A stretch of 53,288 bases of DNA from an uncultured Candidatus Saccharibacteria bacterium (GTDB lineage Bacteria; Patescibacteriota; Minisyncoccia; Phycocordibacterales; UBA9973): NCBI GenBank assembly GCA_964474375.1, contig CAYYSG010000003.1:1-53288 (forward strand), written 5' to 3'. Of the stretch, positions 27,218 through 38,971 are shown piece by piece (within the stretch, counting starts at the first letter, position 1; each line of letters starts with the position of its first letter). Made by a program: the position numbers and the translations under genes. The notes below the pieces were generated by a model that was given only the letters and a program-made list of their open reading frames with translations, searched no databases and was not told the origin of the DNA.

Positions 27218-27376
27218 TTAGAATAGCGTGAACGTGACAAGTCCGCCCCCGTAGTGACAGGCGGCCCAGGCAACGACGCCCAGGAACGCAAGGGATAAAA
27301 GCTGTCCCAGAAGCGTCATGCGCTTCCAGGCGGAGCCCATCGCCATGCCCCATAAGAACAGGAACGCCCAGATCAT
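27218..27376 (-). CDS. 52-aa membrane protein, missing from the ORF track
   Basis: MIWAFLFLWGMAMGSAWKRMTLLGQLLSLAFLGVVAWAACHYGGGLVTFTLF*; ATGA overlap with the MTase stop. Confidence 0.6.
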   Translation of the reverse strand: MIWAFLFLWGMAMGSAWKRMTLLGQLLSLAFLGVVAWAACHYGGGLVTFTLF

Positions 27377-28359
27377 GCGGCATCTCCCAGGTCCAGCGGG
27401 ACCGACTGAAACGGGTCGACCGGCGCGAACGGGATCGGGACAGTCTGGGCGCGAAGGCGTTCGCGGCCCCGCTCCGCGACGTCCGGAAGCAGTTCGGATG
27501 CGTACCAGGGGCGACGAAGGGCCTGGGCGACGATCGGGATACTCGCTTCGCCCGTGAACGGGTCCCAGACCGTTCCCCCGATCGGACTGAACACGTCCAT
27601 CCAGTTCGTCAGAACCCCGACGTTCTTATTCCAGGCGTACGTCCCGGACGGGCCCGCCGTGCTGATGAACGTGTCCGAACAGACCGCCCGGACGTCGACC
27701 TGTTCGGCCTGGTCCGGGGACAGTTCGACGGTCGTCTGATACGTGTCCGGAACCCAGCGGCGCGGCCTGGTCGCCCGCCCCTTCCGCTGGAACCACAGAC
27801 ACGGGGTCGACCAGCAAAACAGGTTATACCAGCGCATCCGGAACGTCTTTGCGACGACCGTATACGTGAGCGTATACACGTATTCCAGGCCCGCGTCTTC
27901 CATTGCACACTGGATGCGGCCTAACTTCGGGAACCCGGACCAGACCAGGACGACCCCGCGTTCGGTCAGGACCCGCTGGGCGACCTGGGCCAGCCATGCA
28001 TAGTCGTCGACGTTCTGGTACACGGGGTCCGCGAAGACCAGGTCGACCGACTGGTCCGGAAGACTGGGTTCCAGCGTCCGGGCGTCCCCCGTGACCAGGT
28101 CGTTCAGGACGTAGCCTGGGGCCGGGGGCGGGGTCTTCCTGGGCCGTCCCCGCTTGCGCTTCTGTTCGGTCTGTTCCATCTGATTAGCCCATCCTTCTAT
28201 CGCGTTCAACGTCTTGAACCATGCGTCCTGGTCCCCGGCCTTCCGAAGGACCCAGTTCGCCCGGTATCCGTTCGTGACCAGGGTCCCCGGTTCGATCGTG
28301 TATCCCAGCGGGCCCAGGCGGGCCCGTAGCGTGTTCAATTGTTCGATCTGGTCTGTCAT
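27373..28359 (-). CDS. Beta-class N6A/N4C DNA methyltransferase with an N-terminal AT-hook-containing extension
   Basis: VTGDA...SVDLVFADPVY (motif IV variant), GTVWDPFTGEAS (motif I variant) and KRKRGRPRK. Confidence 0.8.
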   Translation of the reverse strand: MTDQIEQLNTLRARLGPLGYTIEPGTLVTNGYRANWVLRKAGDQDAWFKTLNAIEGWANQMEQTEQKRKRGRPRKTPPPAPGYVLNDLVTGDARTLEPSLPDQSVDLVFADPVYQNVDDYAWLAQVAQRVLTERGVVLVWSGFPKLGRIQCAMEDAGLEYVYTLTYTVVAKTFRMRWYNLFCWSTPCLWFQRKGRATRPRRWVPDTYQTTVELSPDQAEQVDVRAVCSDTFISTAGPSGTYAWNKNVGVLTNWMDVFSPIGGTVWDPFTGEASIPIVAQALRRPWYASELLPDVAERGRERLRAQTVPIPFAPVDPFQSVPLDLGDAA

Positions 28360-28408
28360 GGGGGGATACTCCGCCTGGGCCCGCTGGGGCCGTCCCATAG
28401 GGACACTG

Positions 28409-28771: not shown

Positions 28772-29938
28772 TCAATTCCGGGTCGTCATGGGCTGGACCA
28801 TATGCAGATAGGTTCCATCGTGCCCGACCGGGCGGAAGATTGCGCCATGTACGGGCGACTTGACCGCGATATGAACCATTGGCATGGGAAGACAGGTCAA
28901 ACAGTCCCGGAAGTATTTCCCGTTGACCGCTATCCGCATGGGGGTTCCGTCCAGGCCGGATACGTCCGCCGTCGCCGTCGCCATACTGACGCCGCGCCCC
29001 TGGGTCGACGCTTCGACCGTGACCTTCCCCGGTTCGTCGTCGTTCGACCGGGCGATCGTCAGATGGGTTATGTTGTTTGTGGACATGACCAGCGCCTGGT
29101 CCAGCGCCTTCAGCAGGTCCGCGACCGCGACCCGAACATGGACCGGGTCGTCGTCCTGGTTCCGAAGGACCGGGTCGACGTTCGGGAAGTCCCCATCCAG
29201 GATGCGGGTCCAGACCTGGGCGAACCCCGCGTCCAGGACGAACAGACCGGCCTTCCCCATCAGGCCCCCTTCAGACGCGGCTAGGCCCAGGAAGACGTCG
29301 TCGTCGCCCGATAGCCCCAGCGCCTGGAAGGATTTAACCGCGTCGACGAAGCCCTTCGCCGGGACCAGGACGTCCAGCGGAGCGACCGATCCCGGAAGGT
29401 CCTGTTCCAGGCGGGCGCAGCGGAACCCGTCCGCCGCTTCCGCCCGGACGATCGTGTCCAGTGTCAGATGGATGCCGGACAAGACCGGGCGGGCGAAGTC
29501 GGTCGCGGCGGCGGGGGCGACCTGGGACACGATCGCGTCCAGGCATCCCAGCGGAACGGCCCGGTCGCCCGTCAGGGACGGAATAGCGGGGAAGTCGTCC
29601 GGGTCCATCACGTTAATGATCGTCGACGTCGACGGGGCCGTCAGGGATACCTGGGGGCCGTTCAGTTCCAGGTCGACGGCATCCTTCGGGAGCTTCGACA
29701 CGATCTGGGACAGCGGGTCGAACGGGATACAGGTTCGACCCGCGTCCCATATCTTCGCCGCGACCTTGACCCGGATGGTCAAATGGTCGTTTGACGCGCT
29801 GAACACGACATGTCCGTCGTCGACCGTGACCAGGACCGACGTTCGGATGGGATGGGCGGCCTTCGTGTCCGCCTGGACGGCGGGCTTGACGACGGACAGG
29901 GCCTGCTTCAGGACATCCTGAAGGATCGTAATGTGCAT
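28772..29938 (-). CDS. dnaN: DNA polymerase III beta sliding clamp
   Basis: AATDFARPVLSGI, ADGFRCA, TRILDGDFPN, VNGKYFRD and VQPM C-terminus. Confidence 0.93.
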   Translation of the reverse strand: MHITILQDVLKQALSVVKPAVQADTKAAHPIRTSVLVTVDDGHVVFSASNDHLTIRVKVAAKIWDAGRTCIPFDPLSQIVSKLPKDAVDLELNGPQVSLTAPSTSTIINVMDPDDFPAIPSLTGDRAVPLGCLDAIVSQVAPAAATDFARPVLSGIHLTLDTIVRAEAADGFRCARLEQDLPGSVAPLDVLVPAKGFVDAVKSFQALGLSGDDDVFLGLAASEGGLMGKAGLFVLDAGFAQVWTRILDGDFPNVDPVLRNQDDDPVHVRVAVADLLKALDQALVMSTNNITHLTIARSNDDEPGKVTVEASTQGRGVSMATATADVSGLDGTPMRIAVNGKYFRDCLTCLPMPMVHIAVKSPVHGAIFRPVGHDGTYLHMVQPMTTRN

Positions 29939-30346: not shown

Positions 30347-31675
30347 CTAGTATCCTTCCGGGCTCCGATAGGTCAGGTCGTCGAAGCTGGTCGTCCGGGC
30401 ATCGAAGCGGACCGGGATGACGCCCAGCGGACCATTGCGATGCTTTGAGATATGAAGCTCCGCGATCCCCTTCTTATCCGTGTTCTGGTCGTACAGTTCT
30501 TCCCGATAGATGAACATGACCAGGTCCGCGTCCTGTTCCAGGTCGCCGCTTTCCCGAAGGTCACTTAGCTGGGGGACGTGGTTCTGTCGCCCTTCGACCG
30601 CCCGGTTCAACTGGGACAGCGCGATCGCCTGGACGTCGAATTCACGGGCGATCGCCTTCGTCATGCGGCTGACCCGTCCGACTTCCTGGACCCGGCCTTC
30701 GGTCCGCTTCTGGGATGACAACAGGCCGATATAGTCCAGGATGACCAGGGCCGGTCCGGAATGCCGTTGACGCCATGCCCGGACCCGGTTCCAGGTCTGT
30801 TCGATCGTGACCCCGGCCCGGTCCCAGATCGTCAGGTTCATGTCCTGGAACTGGTCCAGGCGGGACAGAAGGACGTCCTGGTCGTCGTCCCCCAGGGTAT
30901 GCATGCGGATGCGGTTACTGTCGATCCCGGTCACGGTCGACAGAAGGCGGGTCGTCAAGCTCTGATGGCTCATTTCGAACGACCCGACGAAGACCGGGAT
31001 ACGCGGGGCGGCCCGAAGTGCAAGTGACATGGCTAGCGACGACTTCCCGTTCCCCGGACGGGCGGCGACGATCCAGTAATCCCCCATGTGGTATCCGCCC
31101 GTGATATGGTCCAGGTCGCGGAACCCCGTCATGGTTCCGGGGACCGCTCCGCTGGTCAGGGACTGAAGGACCTGGTCCAGACTGTCCTGGACCGTAATCA
31201 GTTCGGAACGGGCGATCGACATGCCGTCCGATAGGGCGGCGGCGGCTTCGTTCAGTTCGGCCAGGACTTCGTCCGCCGTAATGCCGGGGGTCCGGACCCG
31301 GACGATCGTCCGTTTCGCCAGGTCGTCAATGCGGCGAAGGAAGAACGCGGACTGGACCGCCTGGGCGTACACGTATCCCAGGGCCGGACCCCGATCGTCC
31401 GCCGCCAGCGCCTGGAACCAGTTCAGGTCCGGTTCCGCCATGCCCATGCGGCGGACTTCGCGCCATATCAGAAGCGGGTCCAGCAAGTCGCCCCGCTCCC
31501 GCAAGTTCATGATCGCCGTGTACGCCGTGCGATGGTCCGGCCACAGAAACGCATCCAGGGGAAGGTCCCCCAGAAGTTCATCGGTCAGGGCGGCGTTCGT
31601 CGTGCAACAGGCTAACAGGGCCCGTTCGTTCGCCCGGTCTTCGGTCGGGTCCATCCCGCTGATCTGGTTCGGCAT
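30347..31675 (-). CDS. dnaB: Replicative DNA helicase
   Basis: AARPGNGKSS Walker A, VILDYIGL, ALSQLNRAVEGRQ, LSDLRESGDLEQDAD and KHRNGPLG. Confidence 0.97.
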   Translation of the reverse strand: MPNQISGMDPTEDRANERALLACCTTNAALTDELLGDLPLDAFLWPDHRTAYTAIMNLRERGDLLDPLLIWREVRRMGMAEPDLNWFQALAADDRGPALGYVYAQAVQSAFFLRRIDDLAKRTIVRVRTPGITADEVLAELNEAAAALSDGMSIARSELITVQDSLDQVLQSLTSGAVPGTMTGFRDLDHITGGYHMGDYWIVAARPGNGKSSLAMSLALRAAPRIPVFVGSFEMSHQSLTTRLLSTVTGIDSNRIRMHTLGDDDQDVLLSRLDQFQDMNLTIWDRAGVTIEQTWNRVRAWRQRHSGPALVILDYIGLLSSQKRTEGRVQEVGRVSRMTKAIAREFDVQAIALSQLNRAVEGRQNHVPQLSDLRESGDLEQDADLVMFIYREELYDQNTDKKGIAELHISKHRNGPLGVIPVRFDARTTSFDDLTYRSPEGY

Positions 31676-34239: not shown

Positions 34240-34458
34240 ATGACGACCCCCAAACAGAACAGCGGAACGAAGTCGACGATCGTCCTGGAAGACGACCTTC
34301 GGACGGCCCTGGACCAGTTCGTCCAGGGGGATGAAGACCGCCCCCGGACGACCCTTCAGGACGGCATGGTCTTCCTGATCAAGAAGGGTCTTCAGGCGGT
34401 CGGAGCATGGCCCCGAACGACCGAAGACCCGGAACCTAACGATCGGCGGGCCGCCTGA
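34240..34458 (+). CDS. Small transcription regulator (ribbon-helix-helix-like)
   Basis: KSTIVLEDDLRTALDQF...LQDGMVFLIKKGL; the only + strand gene inside the early arm, with its own promoter. Confidence 0.65.
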   Translation: MTTPKQNSGTKSTIVLEDDLRTALDQFVQGDEDRPRTTLQDGMVFLIKKGLQAVGAWPRTTEDPEPNDRRAA

Positions 34459-34729
34459 CACGCCGCATGCGGCCCCTGTTCCCCTTCCAGTTCTTCAGAA
34501 CCTTCCCGCCCGCCGCGACGGGATAGAACCCTATGGTCACAATACGGACCCCGTTCGTCCCTTCGGGGCGAGCGATATACCCCATGTCTTCCAGGCGCTT
34601 CAGGGCCCAGAAGATCGCGGCCCGCCCGTACCCGGTCCGGTCCATCAGGCGTTCCGCCGATATGTTCGGGCACGCGGTCACATGGGCCCAGACGACCCGT
34701 ACCCGTTCCGGAACCAGTCGATCATTCAT
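34436..34729 (-). CDS. Winged-helix DNA-binding protein (LexA N-domain-like)
   Basis: ISAERLMDRTGYGRAAIFWALKRLEDMGYIAR. Confidence 0.7.
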   Translation of the reverse strand: MNDRLVPERVRVVWAHVTACPNISAERLMDRTGYGRAAIFWALKRLEDMGYIARPEGTNGVRIVTIGFYPVAAGGKVLKNWKGNRGRMRRVRRPADR

Positions 34730-34943
34730 TGCCGCCCCCTTCCAGGTCGTCCAGGCATGACACGGACTTGACCCGGCATTTCGCGCAGCGCGGCGGGTTC
34801 GCCTGGACCAGCGGTTCGTCATGGACCCAGCATAGGTTCCCCAGCATGCCCAGGACGGACCCGGATACCTGTCCATCCCGGAACGCATGGACCAGGGCGA
34901 CCCCCAGGGGGACGTCCTGGTCAAGGTCAAGTGTGCTAGTCAT
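34722..34943 (-). CDS. Small Cys/His hypothetical protein
   Basis: CWVH...CAKC; overlaps its neighbours by a few nucleotides. Confidence 0.55.
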   Translation of the reverse strand: MTSTLDLDQDVPLGVALVHAFRDGQVSGSVLGMLGNLCWVHDEPLVQANPPRCAKCRVKSVSCLDDLEGGGNE

Positions 34944-35484: not shown

Positions 35485-36702
35485 TTACAATCCAGCAAAC
35501 ATGGGTAAATCCGCGATCTGTCCGCATCCGGGGCTGAACCAGATCATTTCCCGGCCCGCGTTCTCTCGCCCCGCCCCGTCGCCCTGGCTCCCGTATCCGC
35601 CCGCCCGCTTCCAGCGATAGGGCATCCATGTGTCCGGCATGACCTGGTCGTCCATGCCACACAGCGCAATCCGGAAGGCCGGGTCGTCCCCGTGTTCGAT
35701 CGCCCATGCCTGGGCGGCATGCCATGCGTCCGTCCCGCCGTGTTCGTAGAACGCCGTATCAGTGCCAGGATACGGCGGGTCCAGGAAGACCCCACACGTC
35801 CCGAAGGCGGTCGTAATGCGGGGCGACAGAACCCGTTCCCAGTCGCCGCACACAATACGTACGTTCCGAAGACGGGCGGAAAGCTGGTCAAAATACGCGA
35901 ACAGGTTGGCGTTGGGACGATGGATGGTACTGGTCGCGTCGTACCCTTTGCCGTCCGCCCCAACGCCGCTCGGCATCTTCCGCGCCACGCCGCCGCGAAG
36001 CCGGGAACTGTGGATGCCTTTTACGTGGCCGGCCCCGCCATCAGTGCCGGCCCCAACACTCGGCATCTGCCGCGCAACCCCGCGAAGCCGGGAACTGTGG
36101 ACCCCGGCCTGGGTCGCGGACCCCCCGTCGTTCGCACTGACATGCGGCATTTGCTTTGCTACGCCGCCCCGCAACCGGGCGCTGTGGATGCCTGTATAGC
36201 CACCGTTTCCTTTACCGTCCGCCCCTACCATCGGCATCTGCCGCGCCACGCCGCCCGCCCGCTTGACGACCTTCCCGTCGTCGACCGACCAGGGGCCGCC
36301 CCCGTTACACCAGCCGCTCCCGATCCAGCTTGACGCGCCCCATATCCACCATGCGGCCAGTTCCGGGTCGCAATAATGCGGGTCGACCATAAGACGTTCG
36401 GTCAACCCCTGGGCGGCCTGGACCAGCGCCACATGACGGGCGAACAGGTCGATTTCGTTAATAGGCCAGTCGCATCGGGCCGCGACGGCATGCGGAACGG
36501 TCTGGATGCTCCGCCAGACGTTCGTAATGTGGCCGCTGGCATCGTTCAGCGTTTCAGCACGGGCGGGAGCGGGACATGCCAGGAAGACGGCGGCGGAACC
36601 CGCGAAGGGTTCGACGTACGCATCCAGGGGGCCGAACTGGGACCAGACCAGGTCCGCGACGGCCCGCTTCCCCCCGGCATAGGGGAACGGGGCGGTCAAC
36701 AT
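35485..36702 (-). CDS. D12-class (Dam-like, alpha-group) DNA amino-methyltransferase with an internal repeat array
   Basis: PFPYAGGKR, YVEPFAGSAAV, ETLND and GVFLDPPY; start reassigned to 36702. Confidence 0.9.
   Translation of the reverse strand: MLTAPFPYAGGKRAVADLVWSQFGPLDAYVEPFAGSAAVFLACPAPARAETLNDASGHITNVWRSIQTVPHAVAARCDWPINEIDLFARHVALVQAAQGLTERLMVDPHYCDPELAAWWIWGASSWIGSGWCNGGGPWSVDDGKVVKRAGGVARQMPMVGADGKGNGGYTGIHSARLRGGVAKQMPHVSANDGGSATQAGVHSSRLRGVARQMPSVGAGTDGGAGHVKGIHSSRLRGGVARKMPSGVGADGKGYDATSTIHRPNANLFAYFDQLSARLRNVRIVCGDWERVLSPRITTAFGTCGVFLDPPYPGTDTAFYEHGGTDAWHAAQAWAIEHGDDPAFRIALCGMDDQVMPDTWMPYRWKRAGGYGSQGDGAGRENAGREMIWFSPGCGQIADLPMFAGL
35917..36255 (-). repeat. Four tandem intragenic repeats (three of exactly 87 nt/29 aa)
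   Basis: GGVARQMP-(variable)-GIHSxRLR units at 36255-36169, 36168-36082, 36081-35995 and 35994 to about 35917. Confidence 0.9.
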
Positions 36703-36947
36703 GGGGCCCCCGCTTCGACGTCGACGTCGACGACCAGGTCCATGACTTCCTGGGTCCATCCGTCGTCCTGGGGGGCGGCCTTCTGGGCCCGTAACCAGTC
36801 ACGAAGGGCCCATCGCACGATCGTGCTGACCTGCGTTTCCAGGCGGTCCGCCGCATCCTGGACGTCCTGCTTCAGTTCGGGCGAACACTCCGCCCCGATC
36901 CAGGTTCGCCCCGTCCCCTGGGCGTCCTGTCCTGTCTGTTCTGTCAT
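36696..36947 (-). CDS. Ribbon-helix-helix regulator (CopG/Arc-like, Cro position)
   Basis: WIGAECSPELKQDVQDAADRLETQVSTIVRWALRDWL. Confidence 0.75.
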   Translation of the reverse strand: MTEQTGQDAQGTGRTWIGAECSPELKQDVQDAADRLETQVSTIVRWALRDWLRAQKAAPQDDGWTQEVMDLVVDVDVEAGAPC

Positions 36948-37047: not shown

Positions 37048-37106
37048 TCGGGCTGTCCGACAGGCTGTCGAAGTGTCCGTCCATGCAGACGAAGGAAGGA
37101 AGACCC

Positions 37107-37526
37107 ATGCCCATAACAGAACTGGCCCGGTTTTTGCGGGCCGAGGTCGAACGGACGTCCTACGAACAGGTATCCGAACGAACGGGGGTCGGACGGGGGA
37201 CGATCGAAGACTTGGTCAAGGGGCGGCATAGCGGATACCCGACCCTGGTCACACTCATCCGTATTGCGGATGCGTACGGCATCCCGCTCTACCAGGTTCA
37301 GGAAATGGCGGGGGTCGACCTGGACCTTCCCGGCGACAGGGCCGAGCTAACCCGCCGTCTGGAAAGCCTGGTCAGTCGTGAACCGGCCTGGACGCCGCTT
37401 CTGGAACTTCTGACGACGGCGGACCCGCGTCTGTCTGGTCCGATCCTTCGTCATGTGGAAGCCCTGTACCAGTTAGGGAAAGAACCGCCGCCGTCGCGTC
37501 GACCCAGTGACCGACCAGAAGAATAG
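37107..37526 (+). CDS. XRE-family HTH repressor
   Basis: SYEQVSERTGVGRGTIEDLVKG...PTLVTLIRIADAYGI; divergent from the early arm. Confidence 0.85.
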   Translation: MPITELARFLRAEVERTSYEQVSERTGVGRGTIEDLVKGRHSGYPTLVTLIRIADAYGIPLYQVQEMAGVDLDLPGDRAELTRRLESLVSREPAWTPLLELLTTADPRLSGPILRHVEALYQLGKEPPPSRRPSDRPEE

Positions 37527-37735: not shown

Positions 37736-37765
37736 TTGACAGGTCGAACGGACGTTCTGTACACT
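37736..37765 (+). promoter_or_regulatory. Promoter for the lysis/packaging operon
   Basis: TTGACA-18-TACACT, followed by hairpin CTGAACC/GGTTCAG. Confidence 0.55.
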
Positions 37766-37801
37766 GAACCGGACACATACTGGTTCAGGAAGGGACGTTC
37801 T

Positions 37802-38971
37802 ATGACAGCGCTTCGCCATCCGCCGATCGTGACCGGGTCCCCGCCGATGGTCGGGGTATGCCTCACGAAGGCGGAATTCCAGGACTACGTCCAGTCGGTT
37901 CCCATCCCCCTGGTCCCCCGCGTATCGGGGATCGTGCTGCACCATACGGTCGAACCGACGCCCCAGGACTGGTCCGGTCTTCGGTCCATGCGGGGCATGC
38001 AAACGTACTATCGGCGGAAGGGCTGGACGTCCGCCCCCCATATCTACGTCGCCCCCGATGGCATTTGGATATTTACCCCCTTACACATGATCGGCATCCA
38101 TGCGAACGCCGGGAACGGGTCGACGAAGGCCGGATGGTATACGATCGGGGTCGAAATGGTCGGGCGCTATGATGCGGCCCGCCCGGACGGAACGATCTGG
38201 GACCTGACCCGCTTCGTCCTGGGAACGCTCTGTCGCCGCTTCCATCTTGACCCGGACCGCGATATAGACCCCCATCGGCAATACAACACGGACAAGACCT
38301 GTCCGGGCTCCGCCGTCAAGATGGAATGGGTCGCAAACGAAGTGAAGCTGTTCTTACAGCACGAATTCACGGCCCCGCCCCCGGCCCGCGTGTATACCCC
38401 CCAGTCCCTCATCATAGCCCCGCCCGGTATCGCGTCGGTCCAGGCTGAACGCTACATGACCGCCCGCCCGATGGGGGAATACGTTCCGATCGACCTGCAT
38501 GACCATATCCTTCCGGAATACTTCCGGGTCTGCATCCCGGTCGGGGTCGACCCCGCCGTCGCAATCGCGCAAATGATCCATGAGACAGGGAACCTGACCA
38601 GCGACTGGGCGGCCCGCCCCCATCGGAACCCCGCTGGGATCGGCGTGACGGGCGTCAAGGGGGAAGGACTGTCGTTCGTGTCCTGGGAACGCCCGAAGGA
38701 CCCGACGAAGGTCGGGAGCGTCGAAGCGCATATCGGGCGCTTACTTGCGTACGCGCTTCCCCTGGACCAGCGGAACCAGCTTCAGTCCGCCCTGATCTAT
38801 CGCGCCATGTCGGTTCGCCCCCTTCCGGCGAAGGTTCACGGCTCCGCGCCGGACCTGCTTCGCCTGGGCGCGGTCCATAACCCGTCTGGAAGCGGATGGG
38901 CGGACCCTGGGGACGAATACGGCGAAGCCCTGGCCGGACTAGCGAACGCCCTGGTCGTCCAGGCGAAATAG
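37802..38971 (+). CDS. Endolysin: Amidase_2 plus a glucosaminidase (GH73)-like domain
   Basis: IVLHHT...APHIYV...IGVEMVG...HRQY..KTCPG, then AIAQMIHETGNLTS...RNPAGIGVTG. Confidence 0.9.
   Translation: MTALRHPPIVTGSPPMVGVCLTKAEFQDYVQSVPIPLVPRVSGIVLHHTVEPTPQDWSGLRSMRGMQTYYRRKGWTSAPHIYVAPDGIWIFTPLHMIGIHANAGNGSTKAGWYTIGVEMVGRYDAARPDGTIWDLTRFVLGTLCRRFHLDPDRDIDPHRQYNTDKTCPGSAVKMEWVANEVKLFLQHEFTAPPPARVYTPQSLIIAPPGIASVQAERYMTARPMGEYVPIDLHDHILPEYFRVCIPVGVDPAVAIAQMIHETGNLTSDWAARPHRNPAGIGVTGVKGEGLSFVSWERPKDPTKVGSVEAHIGRLLAYALPLDQRNQLQSALIYRAMSVRPLPAKVHGSAPDLLRLGAVHNPSGSGWADPGDEYGEALAGLANALVVQAK

Follow-up and report, generated by a model that had tools for sequence, protein, structure and literature searches.

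What could a long tandem array of short repeats, conserved at their ends and variable in their cores, do in the middle of a phage DNA methyltransferase? This question is raised by a 53,288-nucleotide (nt) stretch of DNA, hereafter the window (contig CAYYSG010000003.1 of GenBank assembly GCA_964474375.1, from an uncultured Candidatus Saccharibacteria bacterium), which is that of a tailed phage, encoding a portal, a tape-measure protein, and an endolysin. Its minus strand carries, at 35485..36702, the gene of an orphan, D12-class, alpha-order, Dam-like N6-adenine DNA methyltransferase of 405 amino acids (aa), in which the array occupies aa 150-261 (35920..36255). A first reading of the letters alone, referred to here as the original prediction, had seen in the array a series of specificity modules. 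The reading preferred here is that of an expanded, fast-turning-over, flexible basic loop, built from copies of a family-specific motif and possibly acting as a non-specific DNA tether. As a whole, it is given about an even chance of being right, with high confidence in the architecture and evolutionary behavior of the array and modest confidence in the tether function.

The array consists of four units of about 29 aa (28-30), each with a head (GVARQMPxVGA) and a tail (G[IV]HSxRLR) around a variable, Gly-rich core. From the N-terminal side, and all on the minus strand, these are W1 (GVARQMP-MVGADGKGNGGYT-GIHSARLRG, 36166..36252), W2 (GVAKQMP-HVSANDGGSATQA-GVHSSRLR, 36082..36165), W3 (GVARQMP-SVGAGTDGGAGHVK-GIHSSRLRG, 35992..36081), and W4, a terminal partial unit (GVARKMP-SGVGADGKGYDATST-IH, 35920..35991). 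Translation of 35485-36702 yields exactly the repeat peptides first quoted; the array is thus real, but it spans 35920-36255, and not 35917-36255 as initially placed. The cores follow a loose common pattern, VGA[DN]GxG followed further on by an aromatic residue, and form no discrete recurring classes. A position matrix, built from 121 canonical 14-aa units of distant homologues, scores the heads at 8.0, 3.8, 3.1, and -5.1, for a threshold of -18.2 (the 99.9th percentile of shuffled sequence). At the DNA level, direct repeats of 49 nt and 41 nt recur with a spacing of 87 nt, at 67-78% identity; Tandem Repeats Finder reports no repeat in the array, because the unit copies are too diverged. The motif residues GVARQMP and GxHSxRLR are kept among units despite synonymous differences (GGC GTG GCG CGG CAG versus GGC GTA GCA AAG CAA).

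The existence of DNA repeats with an 87-nt period would be expected if the array acted as a nucleic acid (iterons, a regulatory site, a structured RNA, or the variable region of a diversity-generating retroelement), the peptide repeat being a by-product. The iterons of the lambda origin, for example, lie inside gene O. Such a role is nevertheless barely credible here. The array has no Rfam match, its RNA folds no better than shuffled versions (z = +0.92), no promoter or terminator signal of note lies within it, and no template copy occurs in the window, where blastn of the array finds its own internal repeats only. The RNA, regulatory, and retroelement readings were rejected on these Rfam, folding, signal, and template-repeat results. 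Amino-acid conservation accompanied by synonymous change, across thousands of homologues of very different DNA, also argues against it.

The enzyme carrying the array was assigned from PF02086, TIGR00571, Foldseek, and the starts of its homologues. Translation begins at the ATG at 36702 (product starting MLTAPFPYAGGK), which overlaps the stop codon of an upstream 83-aa open reading frame (ORF) in the sequence ATGTTGA. A longer ORF extends up to 36759, a start not used by homologues, which begin with MLTAPFPY. The PF02086 match in Pfam reaches 40.2 bits for a cut-off of 22 (E = 4.2e-10), the aligned residues being 8-68 only. With TIGR00571 (dam, the GATC-specific Dam subfamily), the score is 44.4 bits, below the NCBIfam cut-off of 114.85; judging from these profiles, the methyltransferase is a subfamily distinct from Dam proper, for which GATC specificity cannot be assumed. 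Motif I, EPFAGS (aa 31-36, 36595..36612, minus strand), involved in S-adenosylmethionine (AdoMet) binding and read from the translation, is nearly invariant in A2, a 121-sequence alignment of the family, and the catalytic motif IV, DPPY (aa 308-311, 35770..35781, minus strand), read directly from the sequence, is invariant in it. The succession of AdoMet-binding FxGxG, recognition region, and then DPPY defines the alpha order, and the array lies between the two motifs of this alpha-group enzyme, as had been proposed.

In the AlphaFold2 model, the core is predicted with confidence, 200 residues having a predicted local distance difference test (pLDDT) of >= 90. The best Foldseek matches in the PDB are EcoDam, T4Dam, DpnM, and Mcbe1 (probability 1.0, E 1e-6 to 1e-4), with template modeling (TM) scores of 0.62-0.71, normalized to the target, and the structure matches in BFVD are phage adenine methyltransferases. 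Sequence match and predicted Dam fold, therefore, agree on an alpha-order, D12, Dam-like amino-methyltransferase. A PDB search with the protein sequence gave no real match, and the family profile reached the Dam enzymes through the N-terminus and the DPPY region only. When this profile was aligned to EcoDam by hhalign (EcoDam sequence 278/278 identical to PDB 4gol_D), only residues 1-71 were covered. The idea that RQLPHLG, the motif of the wider family described below, derives from the FNVPFG hairpin strand of Dam is thus no more than a conjecture. Directly before the array, the model predicts a beta-hairpin (aa 138-147, WSVD/KVVK, 36262..36291, minus strand; AlphaFold2 block with pLDDT 82-85, and alignments). 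The array, located between this predicted hairpin and the DPPY half, sits in the target-recognition region, in line with the original prediction.

Evidence on how the array evolves comes from its close relatives. The closest one, P0001, is carried by a sister phage on a 9.9-kb soil contig, L003. The flanks of the two genes are about 97% identical (13/447 and 16/420 nt differ), and the L003 array has three units versus four in the window: it keeps unit 2 but has a different core 1, and the remainder is replaced or deleted. W2 is the sole unit common to both phages, at 85% nt identity. The units are not collinear, L1 being nearest to W3 (0.80) and L2 to W2 (0.85), while L3 has no partner; W3 is thus closest to unit 1 of the sister phage, and not to its unit 3. 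Across six close pairs of the clade, flanks are 82-97% identical versus 46-69% for arrays, and array lengths differ. Other soil metagenome contigs catch single events. One has an in-frame 90-nt deletion (35980-36069), with its junction in the (Q)MP codons, which removes one unit (the W3 core with a head recombined at the MP codons) and leaves W1-W2-W4. In a second, 96 nt are replaced by 9 nt (net -87 nt), and W2 is lost. Relatives in IMG/VR are all distant (34-55% identity), and a genome scan for a named host gave one distant match, an Anaeromyxobacteraceae metagenome-assembled genome.

These comparisons support a modular behavior of the units, which are gained, lost, or reordered with their register preserved. 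Copy number and the Gly/Ser/Asp-rich cores evolve much faster than the remainder of the gene, and selection on the protein maintains the heads and tails. The modular, recombination-shuffled array that had been proposed is, therefore, borne out by a sister phage with changed cores, one unit fewer, and an altered order, and by soil contigs with one-unit deletions.

Word composition gives a second view of this turnover. When 6-mer usage is scored in 336-nt windows over the whole 53 kb, the array is the lowest of all (-0.22, for a mean of 0.53 and a standard deviation of 0.13); the minimum (-0.25) lies at 35903-36238, and the next lowest window is at +0.20. Compared with its own synonymously recoded versions, the array has a z of only +1.6, versus +5.7 +/- 1.0 (minimum 3.4) for 40 control gene segments, and +5.9 and +4.7 for the two flanks of the methyltransferase gene. 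Since real genes score far above their synonymous recodings, the genome must have strong word constraints beyond codon usage. Rare codons are also enriched in the array (AAA for 3/5 Lys, CAC for 4/6 His, AGT for 5/10 Ser, and GTA for 3/10 Val), and its synonymous-codon likelihood falls at the 4.5th percentile of equal-sized gene windows. Across the genes of the window, 72% of His codons are CAT, despite a GC content of 63%. The hexamer GCCGGC occurs only twice in the window, at 36028 and 36046, for about 55 copies expected from base composition, and both copies lie in the W3 core. The array, thus, breaks the vocabulary of the genome, as first noted, in its 6-mers, its rare codons, and its GCCGGC sites.

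The recent import that had been deduced from this break is probable for some of the units. Scored unit by unit, W1 (z = -0.3) and W3 (-0.6, with its core at -2.0) do not conform to the genome, which makes their import probable, but W2 (+2.45) does conform. The simplest reading of these scores is that W1 and W3, and perhaps W4, arrived recently by recombination with a diverged allele. Change in the array proceeds by in-register recombination at the conserved head codons, where the deletion junction lies, and some of the units are compositionally foreign. Donor searches by back-translated patterns found no match for core 3 in JGI metagenomes, nor for core 1 in IMG/VR. A strict genomic word vocabulary lets recently acquired segments as short as about 90 nt be recognized, and makes phage-to-phage module exchange visible at single-repeat resolution.

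A probable origin of the 29-aa units is suggested by the wider family, which counts 3,892 proteins with E <= 1e-5 among the candidates scored, and at least 1,310 cluster representatives at 50% identity with E <= 1e-30. The annotated members include gp26 of Mycobacterium phage prophiGD11-3. Nearly all members carry a tandem GxGV[NH]R[QK]LPHLG[DN]A motif between a WIGSGWC...GPW segment and an LxxRLR helix, and those seemingly devoid of it carry an RQLVHLG variant. The dominant period is 14 aa, with up to seven copies, and a secondary spacing class is found at 20-31 aa. Copies within one protein are usually near-identical; for example, P0028 repeats GRGVNRQLPHLGD seven times. The KVVK of the window enzyme (aa 144-147), in the second strand of the hairpin, corresponds in position to QLVH(LG), the first motif copy in relatives; this first, degenerate copy coincides with the distal strand of the predicted hairpin in the target-recognition region. 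Among non-head segments, the tails of the window units match the 14-aa matrix best (-23 and -26), but below the 99.9% null of -18. It is the intermediate arrays of 20-31-aa period (P0314, P0196, and P0014/15) that suggest a 29-aa unit which is probably a doublet, with one intact motif followed by a decayed copy, seemingly the tail.

A clade formed by P0014 (L018:10001-11323), P0015, and P0044 has an extra unit (MGVPKKMPAISAGD...GVQFYRYRN) at the extreme N-terminus, before PFPYxGGK, as well as an internal array of 29-30-aa period. A search with the canonical array alone returned only fragments of the same methyltransferase family, several of which are split inside the array; the motif is, therefore, not a portable module. 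Methyltransferase halves starting or ending inside the array are found in P0121, P0128, P0169, P0174, and P0177, some of them on long contigs, and one split entry lies in a Mycobacteroides chelonae chromosome. Judging from such entries, the array is a frequent site of frameshift, pseudogenization, or assembly error in databases. Full-text literature searches found no published description of this repeat architecture, in agreement with the expectation that it was undescribed. The enzyme class is already known, and the architecture looks undescribed as far as the literature was searched, though it is present in thousands of database sequences.

Comparison of homologues for repeat number and cores, which had been put forward as a check, gave a divided answer: copy number varies (about 1 to 7) and cores vary in close relatives, but most relatives have near-identical copies without a variable core. 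Part of this pattern could be that of a functionally neutral, low-complexity expansion, in which one copy belongs to the fold, while the extra copies and the cores are left over from slippage or recombination and are tolerated by a surface loop. Copy number differs between otherwise similar enzymes, cores drift freely, the array is predicted to be disordered, and database genes are often split there. We consider this rather unlikely, since the full motif is preserved in the amino acids of every extra copy, in this gene as in distant homologues, although synonymous sites have diverged; in addition, the natural relatives of the phage show in-frame, unit-register variants rather than frameshifts, and the arrays are consistently basic, with a charge that scales with length.

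This charge and the predicted disorder are at the heart of the preferred reading, that of a flexible basic loop. In the AlphaFold2 model, aa 153-262 have a pLDDT < 50 and no secondary structure. The canonical seven-copy array of P0028 is likewise devoid of secondary structure (pLDDT 33-43), while the cores of both models exceed 90. The window array, with 23% Gly and six His, has a net charge of +9, and the rest of the protein -10. Over 102 family proteins, the mean charge per 100 aa is +5.1 for the insert, which is positive in 89% of them, versus -2.4 for the remainder of the protein, and the longer the insert, the higher its charge (r = 0.64). The motif copies would make weak, sequence-non-specific DNA contacts beside the active cleft, and the array, as a flexible tether, could raise DNA affinity, sliding, or processivity. 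The Gly-rich cores would serve as spacers, drifting and being exchanged unit by unit, and sequence specificity would reside in the conserved globular target-recognition domain (the SGWC...GPW hairpin), not in the repeat cores. In favor of DNA proximity, the P0014/P0015/P0044 clade has its extra motif copy at the N-terminus, which is DNA-proximal in EcoDam. If the array does tune affinity or processivity, it would illustrate how a disordered repeat can modulate a DNA-modifying enzyme.

Several points weigh against this tether. DNA contact is deduced from position, charge, and composition only. The hairpin cannot be equated with the EcoDam recognition hairpin by sequence, hhalign having reached only the N-terminal ~70 residues. 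The low pLDDT could partly come from repeats of variable copy number being poorly aligned. Nor does the array turn over quickly on short timescales: contigs of the same phage from four metagenome runs are identical across it, with no within-population polymorphism. Finally, the residues conserved in the motif include hydrophobic ones, Pro, and His (L, P, H, L, V), and not just basic ones. Such conservation exceeds the needs of an electrostatic tether, and hints at a defined bound conformation or a partner.

A disordered region with a strongly conserved short motif (hydrophobic, Pro, His) is indeed typical of linear docking motifs. In tandem, these could dock a protein partner, such as the host or phage sliding clamp, so that the methyltransferase is kept at replication forks and nascent phage DNA is methylated promptly. 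Among the phage's own genes are those of a DNA polymerase III beta clamp, with all three clamp domains (28772-29938, minus strand), and of a DnaB-type helicase (30347-31675, minus strand), and Q-L-x-x-L may loosely recall clamp-binding motifs of the QL[SD]LF / QLxLxL type. The hydrophobic spacing, however, does not fit the clamp consensus, and Q alternates freely with K (RQ/RK/KK), although Q is the best-conserved residue of clamp motifs. Three relatives have no clamp gene within 10 kb, and a clamp motif would not usually occur seven times in tandem. Docking is, thus, highly unlikely.

Could the cores, after all, read DNA? The original prediction, by analogy with the serial target-recognition domains of multispecific enzymes, had each variable core reading a different DNA sequence, one enzyme protecting against several restriction systems, and recombination shifting the spectrum. 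The array adjoins the hairpin in the target-recognition region, the cores differ from unit to unit and from one sister phage to the other beside conserved flanks, the units are exchanged in register, and they appear to be duplicates of the distal strand of the hairpin plus a loop. The genome also purges most 6-bp palindromes while keeping an A-containing subset, which is compatible with protective methylation without being diagnostic of it. Nevertheless, the family keeps the heads, not the cores, and most members have near-identical copies without a variable core; such copies, therefore, cannot encode different targets. Predicted disorder argues against distinct folded modules in series, and units of 14-29 low-complexity residues are tiny: to our knowledge, all characterized target-recognition domains (multispecific C5 enzymes, Dam) are much larger. 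The loose common pattern of the cores is also not that of discrete classes, A-containing palindromes are still purged (CTGCAG, GAGCTC, GGATCC, AAGCTT, and GATATC have 0 copies), and these phages carry further, separate methyltransferase genes. Serial specificity modules are, thus, not supported as the explanation of the array, and are regarded as quite unlikely. In a variant of this idea, which we hold to be highly doubtful, the units would be duplicates of the DNA-reading strand and loop, any one of which could fold back on the DNA to complete the hairpin, so that gain, loss, or import of units changes or broadens the methylated sequences. This would amount to cassette-like specificity in an amino-methyltransferase, evolving by in-register recombination between co-infecting phages under host restriction pressure. 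Phage orphan methyltransferases are a main counter-measure to restriction, and should the array affect specificity, it would represent a novel means of diversifying the sequences methylated.

Comparison with the closest known systems helps to situate the flexible basic loop. EcoDam, T4 Dam, and DpnM (PDB 2g1p, 4rtj, 1yfj, 2dpm) share with the window enzyme an N-terminal, AdoMet-binding half with PYxGGK and EPFxGxG, a beta-hairpin within a central target-recognition region, and a catalytic C-terminal half with DPPY; T4 Dam is, in addition, a phage-borne orphan gene. Sequence similarity to these enzymes is, however, detectable in the N-terminal ~70 residues only, and the solved Dam enzymes lack the predicted-disordered repeat insertion of about 110 aa after the hairpin. 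The C5-cytosine methyltransferases of Bacillus phages (SPR, phi3T, rho11s, H2) are also orphans, with serial variable segments between catalytic motifs and module exchange. Their target-recognition domains lie between motifs VIII and IX; each is folded, non-repetitive, at least about 40 residues long, and experimentally tied to one target, unlike the present low-complexity units of 14-29 residues, which have a common motif, are near-identical in most relatives, and are predicted to be disordered.

The TAEL repeats of Type I HsdS subunits (EcoR124I / EcoR124II) are in-frame tandem peptide repeats in a DNA-recognition component too, and their copy number changes by unequal recombination. They form a helical spacer that sets the gap between the two half-sites of a bipartite target, whereas the window enzyme has neither a second target-recognition domain nor a bipartite architecture. 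The Gly-Lys linker of DNMT1, AT-hooks, and RGG/SPKK-type repeats offer another likeness, as Gly-rich, basic, disordered repeats beside a DNA-acting domain. Unlike them, the array conserves Leu, Val, Pro, and His, is confined to one methyltransferase family, and has no sequence relationship to any of them.

The neighbors of the methyltransferase gene encode HTH (helix-turn-helix) proteins and proteins without an assignment. PADLOC matched none of them, PHROGs and Pfam matched only the two HTH genes given below, nothing nuclease-like was found, and the search for a cognate endonuclease beside it was negative; the methyltransferase is, therefore, an orphan, without an adjacent Type II restriction-modification partner gene. 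A Cro/CI-type HTH regulator, recognized by PHROGs/Pfam, is encoded divergently from the methyltransferase operon (37083-37526, plus strand), a winged-HTH protein, with a Pfam match just below threshold, is encoded two genes downstream of it (34436-34930, minus strand), and the endolysin gene lies at 37736-38971. These HTH genes and the nearby endolysin place the methyltransferase in an early or regulatory region. Its relatives are located in phage early/replication modules, where the adjacent genes are often those of other methyltransferases (MT-A70, N6_N4), and not of nucleases. The window itself has a second DNA methyltransferase gene, with a weak PF01555/N6_N4 match (27373-28398, minus strand). 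The upstream 83-aa ORF (36696-36947, minus strand), which is unassigned, ends in three perfect TCGACG copies (36715-36732) encoding VDVDV. The overlap of its stop with the methyltransferase start suggests translational coupling, and the same arrangement of the two genes is conserved in L003.

Finally, the purging of 6-bp palindromes extends over the whole window. CCGCGG, CGGCCG, GGCGCC, CGCGCG, and GCGCGC have 0 copies each, for about 55 expected, while CCCGGG has one copy and GCCGGC the two mentioned above. About 25 other palindromes, including CTGCAG, GAGCTC, GGATCC, GGTACC, CACGTG, and AAGCTT, have 0 copies for 6-18 expected. This purging suggests a host lineage rich in restriction systems. 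Other palindromes are abundant, namely GTCGAC (137), CGATCG (97), GACGTC (66), GGGCCC (63), TCCGGA (55), and GAATTC (25). Among the 4-mers, CTAG, TTAA, and TGCA are depleted about 3-fold, and CATG is enriched 2.4-fold.

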